Under the pieces are notes generated by a model, which was given only the letters and a program-made list of their open reading frames with translations, did not search any database and was not told where the DNA came from. From the IMG/VR virus record IMGVR_UViG_3300042334_000410, positions 1-38,155 of that record: DNA of 38,155 nucleotides, one strand, 5' to 3'. A program made the translations under genes and the position numbers. The stretch is from a virus (lineage: Duplodnaviria; Caudoviricetes). Shown here piece after piece: positions 202 through 24,088 of this stretch (within the stretch, counting starts at the first letter, position 1; each line of letters opens with the position of its first letter).

Positions 202-1242
202 ATGACATTACGCACACCGCCAAGTTGGTTACAAAACGGCTCTCACCCTGCCGAAAATGACCGATTAAGCACACAAGCACTTTACGCCACAACAGGCATT
301 ATTGGTACATCTTCTTTAGCGGTAACGCAAAATTCTCCTGCTGGTATGTCTGTCGTAGTTGCTAGTGGTTGGGCTGCCATTGTTGGAACTACGCAAGCAA
401 ATATGGGAACGTATGTTGCTTATAATGACGCCGCAAATGTATTAACTGTAACTACCGCAAACCCAACCAATCCACGAATTGATATTGTTGTTGTTACGGT
501 GCAAGACGCTTACTATACTGGCGCATTTAATAACGTAATTTTCCAAGTTATTGCTGGAACTCCTGCTGGTTCTCCTGTTGCGCCAGCAACGCCAGCAAAC
601 TCAATCAAACTGGCAAATATTGCGGTAGGCGCAGGCGTAACTTCTATTCTTACTGCCAACATTACAGACACTCGCGTTGCCGTAACTACAAATTTACCTA
701 CTGGCGATATTACCGAAGTTCAAGGCGGTACTGGAATCACAGTAACTAGCGGAACTGGACCAATTCCTTCCGTAGCAATTAACTCAACTGTTGCAACTTT
801 AACTGGAACGCAAACACTTACTAATAAAACTCTAACTGCGGCAATTGAAAATAATCCTATAATAAAATCGCCAGAGGAACGCTATACGGTATCTGCTACG
901 GCGGCTACAGGCACTATTGCTTTTGATACCCAAACTCAAGGTGTGCTTTATTACACATCAAACGCAAGCGGCAATTTCACTCTTAATTTTACAAACGTGA
1001 ACGCCAATCTTGCGGTTGGTGACTCTATTTCCTGCGTATTTTTGAATACAAATGGCGCAACAGCATATTACGCAACCGCTTTTCAAATTGACAGTTCAGC
1101 CGTAACTCCTAAATGGGTTGGTGGCATAGCGCCTTCTAGCGGAAACGCCAGTTCAATAGATTCTTATTCATTTACAATTATCAAAACAGCCGCAACTCCA
1201 ACCTATACCGTCCTTGCAGGCGGCAATACTAAGTTCGCATAA
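202..1242 (+). CDS. Minor tail / tail fibre protein
   Basis: AGGAG RBS; follows Dit; N-terminal 'NPTNPRIDIVV' motif typical of actinophage minor tail proteins; Thr-rich shaft; C-terminal domain paralogous to 22826-24088. Confidence 0.75.
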   Translation: MTLRTPPSWLQNGSHPAENDRLSTQALYATTGIIGTSSLAVTQNSPAGMSVVVASGWAAIVGTTQANMGTYVAYNDAANVLTVTTANPTNPRIDIVVVTVQDAYYTGAFNNVIFQVIAGTPAGSPVAPATPANSIKLANIAVGAGVTSILTANITDTRVAVTTNLPTGDITEVQGGTGITVTSGTGPIPSVAINSTVATLTGTQTLTNKTLTAAIENNPIIKSPEERYTVSATAATGTIAFDTQTQGVLYYTSNASGNFTLNFTNVNANLAVGDSISCVFLNTNGATAYYATAFQIDSSAVTPKWVGGIAPSSGNASSIDSYSFTIIKTAATPTYTVLAGGNTKFA

Positions 1243-5623: not shown

Positions 5624-6303
5624 CACGAAACTGTGCGCAGTTGTTCCGCCGATTCGCCGCCGCAATGCAAACCTAAACACCGCCACTATTTAATTGGCTT
5701 AGTGCTTTTTATTGCCATCTCTGTCACGCTCTAAATAACGCGTTAATAACCACGTCGGCTTTATCTGATAGGCTGTCCTCATAACTAAATAGACTTCCAG
5801 AAAAACTCGTCCACGCGTACGCGTACAAGTTGAGTAAGTTACGTCACCGTAAATTGATAAATAAATAAGTACCAAAATTAGAGTAACCAAACCGCCCTGC
5901 AATTAATCCTTCGGGACAGTACGCGCGTCTGACCAAATAATTTTGGCATTTAATTCATAGAGAAGGCAAGAATTTGTGGCGCAGTTGTCAGTAGCGCGCC
6001 GCAATTCAATATGTAGCCAGCAAAACTACCAAAGTCCAAACCAGCCAGCACAACGTTACGCAGTACCAGTTAATGGCAGTTGTAACGAATTAGGCAATAG
6101 TTTGGTAATCGCCACGTGACCGAATCGGCGGCGATGTAACACTTTTGGCAAGTTTGTGACCCGCCGTAAAGTTGTAACGGATATCGGACGCGATGACGCA
6201 GAAATGCAGAGCGTGTGACACCGATAGGAAAGTTATTTGATAGCGGCGAAGGACCCAATGGCGAACCAGCCTTAGAACAAACTGACTATGGACAGCAATA
6301 ACT

Positions 6304-6376
6304 TCCGAAATCGCGCCGTCACTAAAAGGCGGCGCGATATAACTATTTGGCGAATAGTTACTGATGAGGACAGCCA
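6304..6376 (+). ncRNA. Hammerhead ribozyme, type II (HH1)
   Basis: UCC-GAAA(6307-10); stem III 6310-20/6328-38; cleavage triplet AUA 6337-39; stem I 6340-47/6353-60; core CUGAUGA 6361-67; stem II GGA 6368-70; loop I UGGC can pair with GCCA 6373-76. Confidence 0.9.
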
Positions 6377-6403
6377 ATCAACTACAAACAAAGGACAGGC
6401 AAA

Positions 6404-6667
6404 ATGGCAATGAGCAAAAAAGACTTCAATCTAATGGCAATTCAATTTGGACAGCAGATGAAGCACATCAACGCAATGGACTATCACCAGCCAATTCGTG
6501 AGATAGCAATGGCAACATTACTTGATTCAATCAAGGCATATTGTTATGTAGCATTTACAGCAAACGGCAATTTTGATTCATCACGTTTTTATGATTTTGT
6601 TGATGAAATCGCAGATGGTCGCCGTGATTCAAGTGGCAAGTTAGTTAAGAAAAGTAAGGCGGCTTAA
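6404..6667 (+). CDS. Hypothetical early protein
   Basis: AAGGACAG RBS motif; 'MSKKDFNLMA...NGNFDSSRF' is a pattern seen in small phage early proteins. Confidence 0.8.
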   Translation: MAMSKKDFNLMAIQFGQQMKHINAMDYHQPIREIAMATLLDSIKAYCYVAFTANGNFDSSRFYDFVDEIADGRRDSSGKLVKKSKAA

Positions 6668-6669
6668 CA

Positions 6670-6810
6670 ATGTATAACGCAGAAGATTTTGACGGCGATT
6701 ATGAAATGGCAATACAAGTAAGCCGCGTAGTAGCGGACAGAACCAAAGGCGAATCAGATTGTTACTGTTCTAATAACACAGTATGCCGTCCGTGTAGCCG
6801 TAATTACTAA
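6670..6810 (+). CDS. Small Cys-rich hypothetical protein (46 aa, not in ORF track)
   Basis: MYNAEDFDGDYEMAIQVSRVVADRTKGESDCYCSNNTVCRPCSRNY; fills the gap; CxC...CxxC. Confidence 0.65.
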   Translation: MYNAEDFDGDYEMAIQVSRVVADRTKGESDCYCSNNTVCRPCSRNY

Positions 6811-6839
6811 ACCAACCAACTAGAAAAGGACAGAAACAA

Positions 6840-7256
6840 ATGGCACTAAATTGGAATATAACAAAATGCAACAATATGGAAGCACTTCAATCAGACACAG
6901 AATGGCCTGTAACTAATGCCGTTATTTGGTCCACTTTGGCTGTAGAGATTGGCGACCTCACAGAAAAAACTGTTAATGAGTTCTACGCAAGAGTTAAATT
7001 GTGGGAAACTGTTAATGGCGCACTTACATATACAAAAGATGGCGCAGATTATTTCATTACGTTAGAAGATTTACGCAAACGTATTGGACTATCAACCAAT
7101 GTAAGCAACTTGCCACGTAACAAATGGCTAAAGCGCATTGAAAGAATCATCGCCGAAAATCAATGGAAAACAACACCGCAATTATCACTCAATGAAATCA
7201 ATGCAATTATCTTCCAAGCACACGTAGAGGCAGAAAAGGAGACAGCAAATGCCTAA
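6840..7256 (+). CDS. Hypothetical early protein
   Basis: AAGGACAG RBS motif; 138-aa ORF. Confidence 0.8.
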   Translation: MALNWNITKCNNMEALQSDTEWPVTNAVIWSTLAVEIGDLTEKTVNEFYARVKLWETVNGALTYTKDGADYFITLEDLRKRIGLSTNVSNLPRNKWLKRIERIIAENQWKTTPQLSLNEINAIIFQAHVEAEKETANA

Positions 7257-7455
7257 GTATCCAAATATCACAGTAACAATGGACTTAGATGGTCCAGATG
7301 GCAACGCGTTCGCAATTATGGGCGCAGTTCAAAAAGCACTACGTAACGCTGGCGCTACTAAAGAAGAACTGGCGCAATACTCAATGGATTCAATGAGTGG
7401 CGATTATGATAACTTAATCGCGGCTCAATCTAAGTGGGTGGCTTTCAATGTCTGA
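7249..7455 (+). CDS. Conserved phage hypothetical protein
   Basis: AAGGAGACAG RBS; 'LDGPDGNAFAIMG...SGDYDNL' is a recurring small phage protein motif. Confidence 0.8.
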   Translation: MPKYPNITVTMDLDGPDGNAFAIMGAVQKALRNAGATKEELAQYSMDSMSGDYDNLIAAQSKWVAFNV

Positions 7456-7588
7456 CACCAAACCAGCACGTAGCGGCACAATTAAGTGTGGTATGTGTGG
7501 CAAATCTGTTGTAATCGGGAAGTGGATAAAGTTGGCTTTTTGTCCTGATTCCAAATGCACTAATAGTGAAGAACGTTATTTGGACTAA
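7448..7588 (+). CDS. Small Zn-ribbon protein (46 aa, not in ORF track)
   Basis: MSDTKPARSGTIKCGMCGKSVVIGKWIKLAFCPDSKCTNSEERYLD; CxxC...CxxxxC; overlaps the upstream stop. Confidence 0.65.
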   Translation: MSDTKPARSGTIKCGMCGKSVVIGKWIKLAFCPDSKCTNSEERYLD

Positions 7589-7677
7589 GCCGAAACGTGC
7601 CAAATGTGTGCAATTGTTTAAGCAACGCACATATTTGGCACGTCTAGTGGTAAATGCCACTACTGACGAGGCTCGTC
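7583..7677 (+). ncRNA. Hammerhead ribozyme, type II (HH2)
   Basis: AGCC-GAAA(7592-95); 17-bp stem III 7595-7611/7627-43; GUC 7642-44; stem I UAGUGG 7645-50/CCACUA 7657-62; core CUGACGA 7663-69; stem II GGCU 7670-73, extendable by GAC 7583-85/GUC 7675-77. Confidence 0.92.
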
Positions 7678-7704
7678 AATGTAAACCAAACAAAGGACAG
7701 AAAA

Positions 7705-8205
7705 ATGACAGAAGCAACAACAACCGAATCAACACCAACAATGCAAGCAACTATGGAACGATTTGTAATGGATAACGATTTGGCAACCGTTATTGAAAGG
7801 CTGGTCAAGCAAGAAGAACGTTTTATTGAACTGGCGCAAGCAAAAGATTCAATCTATACACGCCTTCAAGATGAACGCGCCACAAGCCGTATCAATCGTG
7901 ACACAGTTCGCAACAAGTTCCGTGAAATGTTAGATGGCGATAAAAACGCCACTATTGAAATGGACTTGAGCGACATTAATGAATTACTAGAAGATATTGG
8001 CGCAAGCAGAATTATCTTTACTTATTCTGTTGATGTAACAGTTACAGCCACAATTACCGGAATTGAGGCAGATAGTGAGGAAGATGCACGTGAAAAGGCA
8101 ATTCAAGCACTAGAACTCCGCGTAGATACAGATTCACTTGGCGAGGACGCCAATTGTGAAGATGAAGAATATGACGCCGACAATGCACAGGAAGAGGACA
8201 ACTAA
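7705..8205 (+). CDS. Hypothetical acidic protein
   Basis: Start reassigned to ATG 7705 behind AAAGGACAG; 'IEADSEEDAREKA' motif. Confidence 0.8.
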   Translation: MTEATTTESTPTMQATMERFVMDNDLATVIERLVKQEERFIELAQAKDSIYTRLQDERATSRINRDTVRNKFREMLDGDKNATIEMDLSDINELLEDIGASRIIFTYSVDVTVTATITGIEADSEEDAREKAIQALELRVDTDSLGEDANCEDEEYDADNAQEEDN

Positions 8206-8206
8206 T

Positions 8207-8482
8207 ATGGAACAGGAAACAAATTCATATATCGCTATTCAACCAAATAGCCACTATCACGACGCCGCCTATAACGCAGGACTATGCAAATCAAGCCAGT
8301 ATTTGGTGATTGATTTCTTTTCTTGGGTTAAGTGGTACAACGACGCAAGATTTCAACGCAAGCCATTAGTGCCTACGCCAACATTTAGCGCAGACACTTA
8401 TGAAATTGCCTTGAAAGTAAGAGATGAACTAAACCAAGCCGCAGATAGCGTTTTGGAAACGACAGCAAAGGACAGTAAGTAA
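8207..8482 (+). CDS. Hypothetical protein
   Basis: ATG 8207 behind GAGGAC, directly after the previous stop. Confidence 0.7.
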   Translation: MEQETNSYIAIQPNSHYHDAAYNAGLCKSSQYLVIDFFSWVKWYNDARFQRKPLVPTPTFSADTYEIALKVRDELNQAADSVLETTAKDSK

Positions 8483-8483
8483 T

Positions 8484-9497
8484 ATGGCGCACAATCTAGA
8501 GCAGTTTGAAGATGGCACAACGGCGTTCTTCACAGCACGTGAAGTAGCGTGGCACAAACTAGGCACAGTTACAGATGGCGCACTTAACGCAGAAACAGCG
8601 TTACAGACCGCGCAACTGGATTGGACTGTATTTAAATCGGAAGAGCCAGTTACAACAATGGTTCCAATGTATGGCGATTCGGCTATGGAAGAAGGGTCAA
8701 TGGAAGAAGTTACGCACAAAGACCGCTTTATGACCTATCGCTATCACCCAAAAACAAAGCAAGCGGACGCACTTGGCGTGGTCGGCAATCGTTACACGCC
8801 TGTCCAAAATTCGGACGCGTTCTCGTTTCTTAATTATGTGTCAGATGAATCAGGCGCAGTTTTTGAAACGGCTGGCTCTATTGATAATGGGCGCAAAGTC
8901 TTTATGACAATGAAATTGCCAGATGGACTTAATATCGGCGGCATTGACGCTATTGATATGTATTTAATGGCGTGGAATACGCACGATGGGTCGTCCTCAT
9001 TTAGTGTGGCAGTTACGCCTATTCGTGTTGTATGTCAGAACACTTTAACGGCGGCTTTAAAAGCGGCTAAGAGTAAGTTCTCCGTACGCCACACCGCCTC
9101 ATCTAACGGCAAGATTCAAGCGGCACGTGAGGCACTTGGCATTACGTTTAAGTATGCCGAGGAATTTGAACGTGAGGCAGAATCGCTACTAAGCCAATCA
9201 ATGACGGACAAAGAGTTCGCCAAAATGGTTGAGATGGCTATTCCGCTTAATGACCCTGAATCACCACGTGCCGTCACAATGGCAGAACAAGCACGTGGAA
9301 CGTTGATGGCACTATGGAAAGCGCCAACACAACTCAATGTGGCTAATACAAAGTGGGCGGCATATAACACGTTCGCAGAGTATTCAGATTGGGCTAAGCC
9401 AGTTCGCTCTAAAGATGGCGAAGTGGCACGTGCCGAACGTATCGTGAATGGAAGTGGCGATAGGTTCAAAAACAAGATGTTGGCACTACTTAACTAA
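8484..9497 (+). CDS. DUF932 (TIGR03299 phage/plasmid-like) protein
   Basis: 'AWHKLGT', 'LGVVGNRYTPVQN', 'ETAGSI..GRKVF', 'NTHDGS', 'TPIRVVCQNTL', 'RHT', 'TKWAAYNTFAEY' motifs. Confidence 0.92.
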   Translation: MAHNLEQFEDGTTAFFTAREVAWHKLGTVTDGALNAETALQTAQLDWTVFKSEEPVTTMVPMYGDSAMEEGSMEEVTHKDRFMTYRYHPKTKQADALGVVGNRYTPVQNSDAFSFLNYVSDESGAVFETAGSIDNGRKVFMTMKLPDGLNIGGIDAIDMYLMAWNTHDGSSSFSVAVTPIRVVCQNTLTAALKAAKSKFSVRHTASSNGKIQAAREALGITFKYAEEFEREAESLLSQSMTDKEFAKMVEMAIPLNDPESPRAVTMAEQARGTLMALWKAPTQLNVANTKWAAYNTFAEYSDWAKPVRSKDGEVARAERIVNGSGDRFKNKMLALLN

Positions 9498-18735: not shown

Positions 18736-18899
18736 TGAAATACATAACGGCGTTACTTGGCGCGGTCTTTGCTGTACTTGCCGTTGCTTGGTTTGTAATG
18801 TTATTGGCAGGCGCTATCTATCCTGTCAGTTATAAGCAATCGTTGCATACGTTGTCCATTCTTTATATCGTAACGGCGTTACTACGAAAGGCAGACTAA
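18735..18899 (+). CDS. Small membrane protein (54 aa, not in ORF track)
   Basis: TAATG overlaps at both ends; MKYITALLGAVFAVLAVAWFVMLLAGAIYPVSYKQSLHTLSILYIVTALLRKAD. Confidence 0.7.
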   Translation: MKYITALLGAVFAVLAVAWFVMLLAGAIYPVSYKQSLHTLSILYIVTALLRKAD

Positions 18900-19378
18900 T
18901 GGCAAAAAGAAGCAAACTTAATCCTGAAACATTGGAGAAAGAAGCCAAAGTTCTTGAAATGAGGCGCGGCGGTTTCACTTTTGACTTGATTGCTACACGG
19001 CTTGGCTACGCGAGCGCCAGCGGCGCGTACAAGGCTTATCAGACGGCTTGCAATCGCATTGTCTATGCAGAAGTGGCAGAAACACGTAACGTTGAAATGG
19101 ATAGGCTAGATATTGCGCAAGCGGCAATATGGGGCGACATTATTAACGGCGCAACTCCCGAAGATAGAGCGCGTGGCGTACAGGCGTTAGTACGCATTAT
19201 GGAAAGGCGAGCCAAACTCCTTGGCTTAGATATGCCAACAAAGGCGCAGATAGAGGTAACTCATTATGACAGTTCAACAATTGACGCCGAAGTCGCAAGA
19301 CTTGTCGCTCTCCTTGATAGCGAGCCGCCACGTGCGTTGGGCACATCAACTGGCAAGAACGGAACAATTACCAACTAA
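18899..19378 (+). CDS. terS: Terminase small subunit
   Basis: HTH 'LEMRRGGFTFDLIATRLGY', 'IMERRAKLLGLD.P'; directly upstream of terL. Confidence 0.8.
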   Translation: MAKRSKLNPETLEKEAKVLEMRRGGFTFDLIATRLGYASASGAYKAYQTACNRIVYAEVAETRNVEMDRLDIAQAAIWGDIINGATPEDRARGVQALVRIMERRAKLLGLDMPTKAQIEVTHYDSSTIDAEVARLVALLDSEPPRALGTSTGKNGTITN

Positions 19379-22825: not shown

Positions 22826-24088
22826 ATGAGCCAAAGAAGCCTTGTACCCAGTAACTTAATAGCGTTATCTGCCGCGCCAACAATTCCAACATTGCGCTCT
22901 GGCGACGCCTATTACGATACAACTCTTGGCGCAATACAGGTTTACAACGGTACAGCGTGGGAAACTTATGTAACTTTGGCTGATTCTCAAGTGCTGACAA
23001 ATAAAAGTATTAACGGCGCTAACAATACGATTACAAATATATCTTTAACTACAGGCGTAACTGGAACATTACCTGTTGCTAATGGCGGTACAGGTATTAC
23101 TTCATTGGGCACAGGTGTTGCAACATTTCTTGGAACTCCGTCATCTGCGAATCTAGCGGCGGCTGTAACAGGAGAAACTGGAACTGGCGCGCTCGTATTT
23201 GGCACTAGCCCAACGCTAACTACCCCAGCGTTAGGCGTTGCTACTGGAACTTCTTTTAACAGCATAACTGGATTAAGTTCTACAAACCCTGCCGCTTTAG
23301 GAACAGTAGCAGTCGGAACAGGAACTACTACCGCAAGAGCAGACCACGTTCACCCAACTACTGGGCTTGGCTTAACATCAGGAACTCTTGCTCAATTCGC
23401 TGCAACTACATCTGCGCAACTGGCAGGCGTTATATCTGACGAAACAGGAACTGGCGCTTTAGTTTTTGGAACTTCACCAACACTCACTACGCCTATTCTT
23501 GGAACTCCACAGTCAGCAACTCTAACTAATGCAACTGGCTTGCCGATTTCAACAGGCGTAAGCGGATTGGCAACTGGCGTGGCAACCTTTTTGGCTACTC
23601 CAAACTCAGCCAATCTTGCCGCCGCATTGACTGATGAAACTGGAACTGGCGTAAATGTATTTGCTACTAGCCCAACTCTTACTACGCCAACTCTTAATAA
23701 CCCTATTATGAAATCACCCGAAGAACGTTGGACAGTTTCGGCAACTGCCGCCACAGGAACTATCGCTTTTGATACGCAAACGCAGGGCATTTTGTATTAC
23801 ACGTCTAATGCAACCGCTAACTGGACACTAAATGCAACAAATGTGAACGCAAATCTTGCTGTCGGTGACGCTATTTCAATAGTATTTGCCGTAACTAATG
23901 GCGCAACTCCGTATCGCCCAACCGCCTTTCAAATAGATTCATCTGCCGTAACGCCTAAATGGGCTGGCGGTACTGCTCCAGCGGCTGGTAACGCCAACGC
24001 TGTTGATTGGTACTCATATGTTATTGTAAAGACTGCGGCAACACCTACATATACAGTTTTTGCAGGACAATCTGCTAAGTTTGCATAA
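22826..24088 (+). CDS. Fibre protein with internal repeats; C-terminal domain paralogous to 202-1242
   Basis: Three 'SA.LA....ETGTG..VF.TSPTLTTP' repeats; 'KSPEERWTVSATAATG...KFA' C-terminus. Confidence 0.75.
   Translation: MSQRSLVPSNLIALSAAPTIPTLRSGDAYYDTTLGAIQVYNGTAWETYVTLADSQVLTNKSINGANNTITNISLTTGVTGTLPVANGGTGITSLGTGVATFLGTPSSANLAAAVTGETGTGALVFGTSPTLTTPALGVATGTSFNSITGLSSTNPAALGTVAVGTGTTTARADHVHPTTGLGLTSGTLAQFAATTSAQLAGVISDETGTGALVFGTSPTLTTPILGTPQSATLTNATGLPISTGVSGLATGVATFLATPNSANLAAALTDETGTGVNVFATSPTLTTPTLNNPIMKSPEERWTVSATAATGTIAFDTQTQGILYYTSNATANWTLNATNVNANLAVGDAISIVFAVTNGATPYRPTAFQIDSSAVTPKWAGGTAPAAGNANAVDWYSYVIVKTAATPTYTVFAGQSAKFA

Follow-up and report, generated by a model that had tools for sequence, protein, structure and literature searches.

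Two position-tied designs of type II hammerhead ribozyme in a phage early region and the probable cutting of one transcript into linear messages

We analyzed by computation a 38,155-nucleotide stretch of phage DNA (the window) in which two unlike hammerhead ribozymes, HH1 and HH2, stand ahead of small genes, and we consider it probable, judging from comparisons and folding models, that they cut an early transcript into linear RNAs, HH1 constitutively and HH2 under the restraint of a clamp. One long early transcript would thereby yield three linear RNAs, that is, a non-coding leader of ∼380 nt, a five-gene message of 1305 nt, and a downstream message. HH1, which has the standard pseudoknot, would cut fast and constantly and part the structured leader from the message; in HH2, which lacks the pseudoknot, a tail lying on the catalytic core would slow cutting, leaving some transcripts cut and others intact, and tail-core pairing after the cut would lock the product. 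Each cut would create a 5′-OH end held in a hairpin, with an open ribosome-binding site 50 to 60 nt further on; the piece upstream of the cut would finish in a long hairpin and carry a cyclic phosphate. The expected effect is a stability and a translation of the message that are specific to each gene block and need no host RNases, although ribozyme cleavage may also hasten decay, as for glmS (PMC6765202). Cutting of the early polycistron without host RNases had been put forward by the initial annotation as a candidate undescribed system; the idea is supported because the core, the stems, and the distance to the start codon are conserved across relatives, whereas its novelty does not hold, the same having been proposed for prophages (Perreault 2011, PMC3088659).

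The virus record (38.2 kb; completeness, 99%; G+C, 44%; terminal repeat, 148 nt) carries genes of a tailed phage, almost all of them on the + strand. Upstream, the ribozyme region neighbors lysis and HNH genes, and with it begins a block of small genes that leads to DUF932, Bet/RecT, exonuclease, and replication genes (Table 1); we infer that the ribozyme region and this block are the early region. The best matches of the DUF932 protein are actinophage proteins (∼42%), terminase matches are mixed, and no relative at the DNA level was found among named phages. PHROGs, Pfam, NCBIfam, Atlas, and locus searches returned no function for the cargo genes, and gene 6 has 174 homologues, with a Pfam domain in none of the 120 listed.

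Table 1. Features of the ribozyme region, with positions in the window
Feature	Positions	Strand	Remarks
Candidate early promoter	5928..5960	+	picked by eye; -35-like hexamer 5928-5933, A/T-rich -10, start ~5957-5960
Structured leader RNA core, ~260 nt	6013..6270	+	from covariation; closing helix 6016-6019/6259-6262, arm 1 6020-6157, arm 2 ~6160-6252
HH1, type II hammerhead with loop I/3′ tail pseudoknot (UUGGC with GCCAA)	6304..6378	+	stem II 6304-6306/6368-6370 (3 bp); GAAA 6307; stem III 10 bp; stem I 9 bp; core CUGAUGA 6361-6367; predicted cut between 6339 and 6340, AUA triplet
A-rich leader, ribosome-binding site (6390), ATG of gene 1	6379..6406	+	HH1 cut to ATG, 64 nt
Gene 1, 87 aa	6404..6667	+	no PHROGs or NCBIfam match; Pfam below cut-off; Atlas look-alikes unnamed, <0.9
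Gene 2, 46 aa, Cys-rich C terminus	6670..6810	+	function not assigned by profile searches
Gene 3, 138 aa	6840..7256	+	inside the ribozyme bracket in 15 relatives
Gene 4, 68 aa	7249..7455	+	PHROG 1933 (function unknown), E 2e-20
Gene 5, 46 aa, two Cys pairs	7448..7588	+	zinc finger possible on visual inspection
HH2, type II hammerhead without pseudoknot	7588..7679	+	stem II 7588-7591/7670-7673 (4 bp); GAAA 7592; stem III 16 bp; stem I 7 bp; core CUGACGA 7663-7669; predicted cut between 7644 and 7645, GUC triplet; predicted clamp hairpin, tail 7673-7678 with core 7664-7669
GYGCARTTGT, copy of repeated intergenic motif	7608..7617	+	inside HH2 stem III
A-rich leader, ribosome-binding site (7692), ATG of gene 6	7680..7707	+	HH2 cut to ATG, 60 nt
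Gene 6, 166 aa, conserved phage protein	7705..8205	+	after an internal ribozyme in most relatives
DUF932/TIGR03299 gene	8484..9497	+	anchor for gathering relatives

When the entire window was searched by structure on either strand, exactly two hammerheads were found, both type II and both on the + strand; over 100 dinucleotide shuffles, the loose form of the search gave a mean of 0.01 matches and the strong form none. The initial annotation had placed two co-oriented ribozymes at these cut sites, with 1305 nt and five small ORFs between them (6340-7644), and these coordinates stand. Both copies have the core CUGANGA, the GAAA, an NUH triplet, and three stems, of which I and III end in loops and II is open, as in type II. 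The pseudoknot of most type II ribozymes is present in HH1 (5 bp) and absent from HH2, which has in its place a U-Nn-Y-N loop I and an adjacent A. Rfam reported neither window copy for RF02276 (gathering score, 37 bits); the first ribozyme of a relative passes this cut-off with 43.7 bits, and an HH2-type ribozyme of a relative falls under it with 33.9 bits. Core, three stems, and open stem II are common to RF02276 and both copies, and the HH1 type also matches the consensus loop and tail, whereas the HH2 type differs in having a clamp tail and no pseudoknot. As for the similar leaders that had been remarked on after both ribozymes, the 13-mer AAACAAAGGACAG indeed occurs in the genome only after HH1 and HH2, yet its last 9 bases are found 8 times genome-wide, so that AAACAAAGGACAG is the ordinary ribosome-binding site of the phage. 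The start regions behind the ribozymes have a median openness of 0.70 to 0.76 in the folding model, compared to 0.51 at other starts in the window; the A-rich leaders account for part of this openness.

Relatives were gathered by a search with DUF932, from which 80 of 322 loci were retained, 36 of them close (identity of at least 66%) and 44 more distant. Two or three type II hammerheads are held by 34 of the 36 close relatives, the other two being cut short upstream, and hammerheads occur in only 2 of the 44 more distant loci, these being nonindependent counts from one phage group that includes near-copies. The predicted cut precedes the start codon by a median of 59.5 nt (54 to 92) in 32 distinct first-type ribozymes and of 56 nt (48 to 71) in 49 internal-type ribozymes, sets that were sorted by tail sequence; counts of type by position are taken instead from a loop-anchored sample (see below). 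Compensatory changes affect 15 of 17 first-type stem pairs and 6 of 7 pairs of internal-type stem I. The segments between ribozymes range from 344 to 2128 nt, and all five window genes lie inside the bracket in a single relative (L113) of 34 and none in 9, by a tblastn count that misses distant homologues (gene 6 was found in 11 loci, whereas clustering finds it in most). In another relative (L148), four of the window genes are located after its last ribozyme, and genes downstream of the last ribozyme vary between relatives as well. Comparison of relatives thus confirms the variable gene content between conserved hammerheads that the initial annotation had proposed to look for, and the random placement relative to gene starts that the annotation named as a refutation of its proposal is not seen, each ribozyme lying ∼50 to 60 nt before a start codon; the self-excising cassette of five genes finds no support in this comparison. 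Judged by their placement, the ribozymes belong to gene starts and not to cassette borders.

The loop-anchored sample was obtained by scanning for the first-type stem III loop alone, which yielded 89 loci, 45 of them with such a hammerhead. None of the 45 has a hammerhead upstream of the first-type one, and a second ribozyme follows in all 28 loci with at least 2.3 kb of downstream DNA. A pseudoknot of at least 4 bp is present in 31 of 36 first ribozymes compared to 3 of 26 downstream ones, and a clamp of at least 6 bp in 23 of 26 distinct downstream ribozymes compared to none of 36 first ones; variant pairings of the pseudoknot occur in two relatives (L141 and L146). In the tail-sorted set, an ACUAAAA-type stem III loop, the one that HH1 has, closes 28 of 32 first-type and 0 of 49 internal-type ribozymes. 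By these sequence traits, HH1 and HH2 are not equivalent, and they represent two distinct, position-tied designs.

In the clamp, the tail is paired with the CUGANGA core, of which N is the sole free position, and the tail partner follows N. Across 21 rows this pair is U-A in 13 and C-G in 8 and is never unpaired; over all 49 internal-type ribozymes, it is U-A in 28, C-G in 15, U-G in 1, and unpaired in 5. The unpaired cases are mostly short clamps. With a pattern that permitted all four base combinations, core and tail agree in 20 of 20 true hammerheads compared to 43 of 63 chance pattern matches. The U-A/C-G label changes three times, two of them forced by well-supported branches, on a downstream-protein tree of 28 rows, the 21 internal-type ribozymes ahead of other genes being left out. 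The internal-type triplets are GUC (38), AUC (8), AUA (2), and GUA (1); loop I is of the U-Nn-Y-N form in 39 of 49, the A beside stem II is present in 48 of 49, and stem II has 4 bp, the loop I motif and the A forming a tertiary contact according to the legend of Figure S5 in PMC3088659. Because triplet, stem II, adjacent A, and loop I are kept, the internal-type ribozymes look as if they are still selected to cut. Folding of their cut product gives two abutting 5′ hairpins followed by an open leader. Three other roles for the clamp or the cut were tried and rejected. Exposure of the ribosome-binding site gated by cleavage rises at HH2 from 0.33-0.40 to 0.8 with 150 nt of context and is absent with 100 nt, and no more than 7 of 48 internal-type ribozymes and 1 of 32 first-type ones gain over 0.2. 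The idea that the tail supplies the core of a hammerhead on the minus strand fails, that strand having no hammerhead. A DNA operator is opposed by a spacer whose length differs inside a single phage (7-2-7 and 7-3-7 in L121 and L123) and by G-U variants that favor RNA (L118, L148, and L218). In bacterial genomes (13 of 64 parts scanned), the 120 matches listed for clamp-type ribozymes include 1 hammerhead.

What the clamp would do to cutting is where several readings part. In the folding model, stem II of HH2 has a probability of ∼0.3 only over the short run of nucleotides that precedes the tail; once the tail is made, the clamp reaches 0.96 to 0.97 and stem II drops to 0.02 to 0.04. Taken at face value, such numbers describe an HH2 that stays clamped for good without cutting, serving only as a hairpin barrier or a protein-binding platform, for which the repeated, regulatory-looking motif often borne by stem III would also speak; we nevertheless find this highly improbable, as the core, the triplet, the 4-bp stem II, and the loop I contact motif are all conserved and some internal-type ribozymes have a clamp of only 4 bp and a stem II predicted to be open (0.85 to 0.89). 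The cost of the active fold is a median of 3.1 kcal/mol for the internal type compared to 2.3 kcal/mol for the first type, and 1.7 kcal/mol for HH2 compared to 2.4 kcal/mol for HH1, the pseudoknot of HH1 and its type being unmodelled. Because these costs separate the two designs poorly, a brake before cutting and a lock after it are inseparable by computation; we commit to a clamp that would be both. The main rival to this brake-and-lock reading is a ribosome-gated version, in which HH2 and the internal ribozymes are translation-gated switches and a ribosome at the upstream stop covers stem II and the GAAA and blocks the cut for as long as the upstream gene is translated. The placement of stop codons argues for it: the stop of gene 5 (7586-7588) overlaps stem II of HH2, a stop lies 2 to 8 nt before the GAAA in 43 of 49 internal-type ribozymes (at 3 or 4 nt in 37) compared to 0 of 32 first-type ones, and in the anchored sample, an in-frame stop falls within 9 nt of all 26 downstream ribozymes and of no first ribozyme. 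With the stop plus 12 nt masked, the model loses both stem II and stem III. However, tight gene packing combined with the required A beside stem II could yield the same spacing, and the masked model does not favor the clamp over other pairings (0.14 to 0.39), for which reasons we judge ribosome gating unlikely.

Two further readings concern the gene blocks rather than the clamp. The ribozyme-plus-ribosome-binding-site blocks could be portable expression modules, or short homology blocks for swaps of accessory genes by Bet/RecT, with cutting a secondary matter. The turnover of cargo described above is what such swapping would leave, as are the additional internal ribozymes of 6 of the 36 relatives and the mosaic make-up of HH2, whose flanks resemble L113 and whose stems III and I resemble L114, and the phage encodes both Bet/RecT and an exonuclease. 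Against this, HH1 and HH2 share little sequence, the second ribozyme is never lost where enough downstream DNA is available, genes beyond the last ribozyme vary too, and recombination needs neither a catalytic core nor covarying stems; we regard module swapping as the primary role as quite improbable, and it is compatible with RNA cutting. The initial annotation had also suggested that the 1305-nt piece, once excised, could become a circular mRNA, the ligation being by RtcB or by a ribozyme. A circle would be the more striking outcome, with little behind it: no feature favoring the joining of the ends was found, and we hold the idea to be very unlikely. It is true that hammerhead end chemistry suits RtcB (PMC7229834) and that RtcB is present in 107 of 251 sampled Actinomycetes genomes (a tally that includes one genome flagged as unpublished, G034); moreover, the minimum-energy fold of the naked RNA joins the fragment ends, with 62 pairs spanning more than 300 nt, and a 1-bp stem II with a pseudoknot can be active in type II (PMC3088659). 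Yet the joined stem II would have 1 bp in 23, 2 bp in 8, 3 bp in 2, and 4 bp in 1 of 34 segments, compared to 2 to 5 bp in the native ribozymes. Pairing of the terminal stretches is not superior to that of internal ones: for the window, 19 of 30 controls did as well, and in only 2 of 32 segments was the number of such controls 1 of 30 or less. The new 5′ base takes part in a stem I pair, and three-ribozyme relatives would give pieces with a clamped 5′ core. The phage is without RtcB, no RtcB-positive genome smaller than 2.6 Mb occurs among the 251, and a viroid RNA cut by hammerheads in E. coli gave only very minor circles without added ligase (PMC5789856). Perreault et al. likewise report, as data not shown, no circular or spliced products of such arrays (PMC3088659). 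Junction-type matches numbered 0 in metagenome contigs that may stem from either DNA or RNA, a weak negative. An RNA run (X1; 9 contigs, share 0.06) has no joints, a weak negative as well, its coverage being absent from 6322 to 8217, which spans both cut sites. None of the 20 largest families of direct repeats spans both ribozymes.

The 716 nt from the HNH stop to the HH1 cut are non-coding and hold what is likely a folded, uncatalogued RNA that HH1 would release. In an alignment of the last 400 nt, long-range compensatory pairs appear in the leader, and folding of 25 relatives under constraints gave a common layout, made up of a closing helix of 4 bp and two branched arms whose internal loops are rich in A. 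A count over 23 sequences (two more, with long inserts, were excluded) shows changes in both partners for 20 of 28 named pairs and pairing in 94.7% of cells compared to 25 to 36% in slid controls, a test whose helices derive from the sequences counted and which takes no account of phylogeny. Single-sequence folding is no better than for shuffles (z, -0.9), and Rfam 15 has no match in the window or in four relatives. By eye, the leader fits none of the consensus elements of a group I intron, RNase P, or SRP, all of which we rejected. The tie to the first ribozyme is close: of 41 viral matches to the leader pattern, 32 are genuine, 31 of them followed by a hammerhead cut 72 to 136 nt on and the remaining one ending inside the ribozyme, and in metagenomes a hammerhead follows all 12 genuine matches out of 118. 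A leader HMM run over 627 sequences gave 58 distinct matches, 57 with a cut within 300 nt, as a sequence-only model, not a calibrated covariance model, that may miss distant members; with it, three of seven first ribozymes lacking the 5′ anchor of the leader show partial matches and four no trace. As to where the leader starts, an early promoter (Table 1) is a guess: a similar spacing precedes the shared AGAGAAGGCA block in several of the 12 rows compared, and a promoter consensus scan did not call the site. Contigs of the RNA run cover 5956-6010 and 6037-6282, the first extending past the candidate start, and such contigs cannot show transcription. The conserved ACUAAAA loop of stem III would stay on the released leader. 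Our preferred guess is that the leader is an RNA product acting on its own, because a leader acting in cis would have no obvious need for a conserved 3′ hairpin after release. A more elaborate division of labor is possible, if somewhat doubtful, in which HH1 matures this own-acting, multibranched non-coding RNA of ∼380 nt, a member of a new class in phages, and the clamped internal hammerheads sense ribosomes at the upstream stop and time the break-up of the message for host takeover; ending in the ACUAAAA hairpin, the released leader might be a decoy, for instance one that draws off a host defense or RNA-binding protein.

The arrangement as a whole is of a known kind. Hammerheads flank gene blocks in prophages and cleave in vitro and in E. 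coli (Perreault 2011, PMC3088659); as in the phage studied here, those arrays place co-oriented hammerheads between small genes of variable identity, and processing into operon- or gene-length mRNAs was proposed for them, with circles considered and undetected. Absent from the accessible part of that paper, and present here, are the first and internal designs, the core-pairing tail, the overlap with the stop codon, and the upstream structured RNA; a term search of its supplement, which possibly lacks the full alignments, returned no clamp annotation. The early RNA of T7 is cut at five sites by RNase III (PMC4858673), which is likewise the shortening of an early polycistron at structured intergenic sites, whereas here the RNA would cut itself without a host enzyme and leave 5′-OH and cyclic-phosphate ends. 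RiboJ raises mRNA about twofold and protein 2- to 10-fold (PMC6206723), and it has the same order of ribozyme, further hairpin, and exposed ribosome-binding site with a uniform 5′ end; in that engineered part, however, the second hairpin was added downstream, whereas here it would form from the core of the ribozyme itself. In retrozymes and Avsunviroidae, too, two co-oriented hammerheads free a fragment with ligatable ends, from repeated copies of one ribozyme around a small, self-paired, non-coding RNA that a host ligase closes (PMC7229834, PMC5789856). The phage, in contrast, has two unlike type II ribozymes around a translated, variable region of 0.3 to 2.1 kb; there are no identical ribozyme copies, and the monomer is not a small, highly self-paired, non-coding RNA, its 1305 nt being filled by five ORFs. 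Theta ribozymes, which have an HDV-like fold, mature phage tRNAs. They resemble the role proposed for HH1 in that the 3′ end of a non-coding RNA lying upstream is defined by a phage ribozyme, and they differ in fold and in their tRNA substrate, the present case pairing a hammerhead with an uncatalogued RNA. A literature search, which mostly covered papers outside subscription, found no description of a core-pairing tail, of a division between first and internal ribozymes, or of such a leader; the additions that we could not find in print are the position-specific designs and a leader tied to the first cut.

The purpose of self-cleaving ribozymes between phage genes is a standing question (PMC6765202), for which this family provides a compact test case, with two position-tied designs, natural compensatory variants of the clamp, and two or three ribozymes per phage. 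The first cut would set the 3′ end of the leader and thus define an uncatalogued RNA for study. Should a natural hammerhead indeed brake itself or sense ribosomes, the best-studied ribozyme would gain a new regulatory use, and synthetic operons a ready part. Two minor sequence observations belong to the same region. An inverted repeat between 5766-5791 and HH1 (6355-6380) scored above all 30 window shuffles and is missing from relatives, including the three closest; we treat it as lineage specific or as chance. The motif GYGCARTTGT, which we rejected as an rRNA-type boxA after four actinobacterial rRNA leaders proved to carry another motif, has five copies in the window, all on the + strand, a number that none of 100 shuffles reached, and motifs of this type also occur in relatives, often in stem III of internal-type ribozymes.

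A 10-nt motif, GYGCARTTGT, recurs five times in the window, with all five copies on the plus strand and intergenic, one of them lying within stem III of HH2, the downstream of the two type II hammerheads. Relatives carry their own versions of the motif, both between genes and in the stem III loops of their internal ribozymes, that is, the HH2-like hammerheads beside a stop codon, and frequently have one minus-strand copy 700 to 800 nt 5' of the first, HH1-like ribozyme. This repeat could be an operator or an RNA site bound by a protein. The HH2 region is itself a mosaic, combining flanks like those of one compared locus (L113) with stems III and I like those of another (L114). A 26-nt stretch is complementary to HH1 over its core and tail; among the relatives compared, this stretch is present in the window genome only.

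Coordinates of features in the window and in other loci (L numbers)
Feature	Location	Strand	Remarks
GYGCARTTGT motif	window 5635, 5979, 7608, 9855, 13897	+	10 nt
HH2 mosaic region	window 7588-7700		
Complement of HH1 core and tail	window 5766-5791		26 nt
159-aa gene	window 18899-19378		directly 5' of large terminase; hit to PHROG 645 ('Rnase E')
Duplication	window 819-1118 and 23665-23964		300 nt, 73%
Internal gene repeats	window 23104-23689		in 420-aa gene
Leader RNA variants	L136:2824-3157; L446:3028-3415		
Clamp-type type II hammerhead	L327:2990-3060		stem II of 10 bp
Hammerhead array	L181:2290-9100		ten within 15 kb
Type II hammerheads	L040:4513-5937		
Type II hammerheads	L218, L228	-	5 kb each

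Among the first ribozymes of relatives, those of L117, L118, L122-L128, L139 and L145 have an additional U separating core A9 from stem II, and in two others core position 7 is an A. In two variants of the probably folded leader RNA upstream of this ribozyme, the second arm bears long structured inserts.

Across 120 genome matches, the sole clamp-type hammerhead, whose tail is predicted to pair with its own catalytic core, is that of L327, a contig labelled uncultured Alphaproteobacteria. In an unrelated phage (L181), one type II hammerhead is followed by nine of type I, each about 30 nt 5' of a start codon. Three to four type II hammerheads precede genes in other phages (L040, L218, L228, L197, L217 and L240), and those of the L218 group have clamps of 4 to 7 bp, G-U variants among them.

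Elsewhere in the window, gene position suggests that the 159-aa gene encodes the small terminase subunit rather than an 'Rnase E'. The duplicated sequence is shared by two structural genes.
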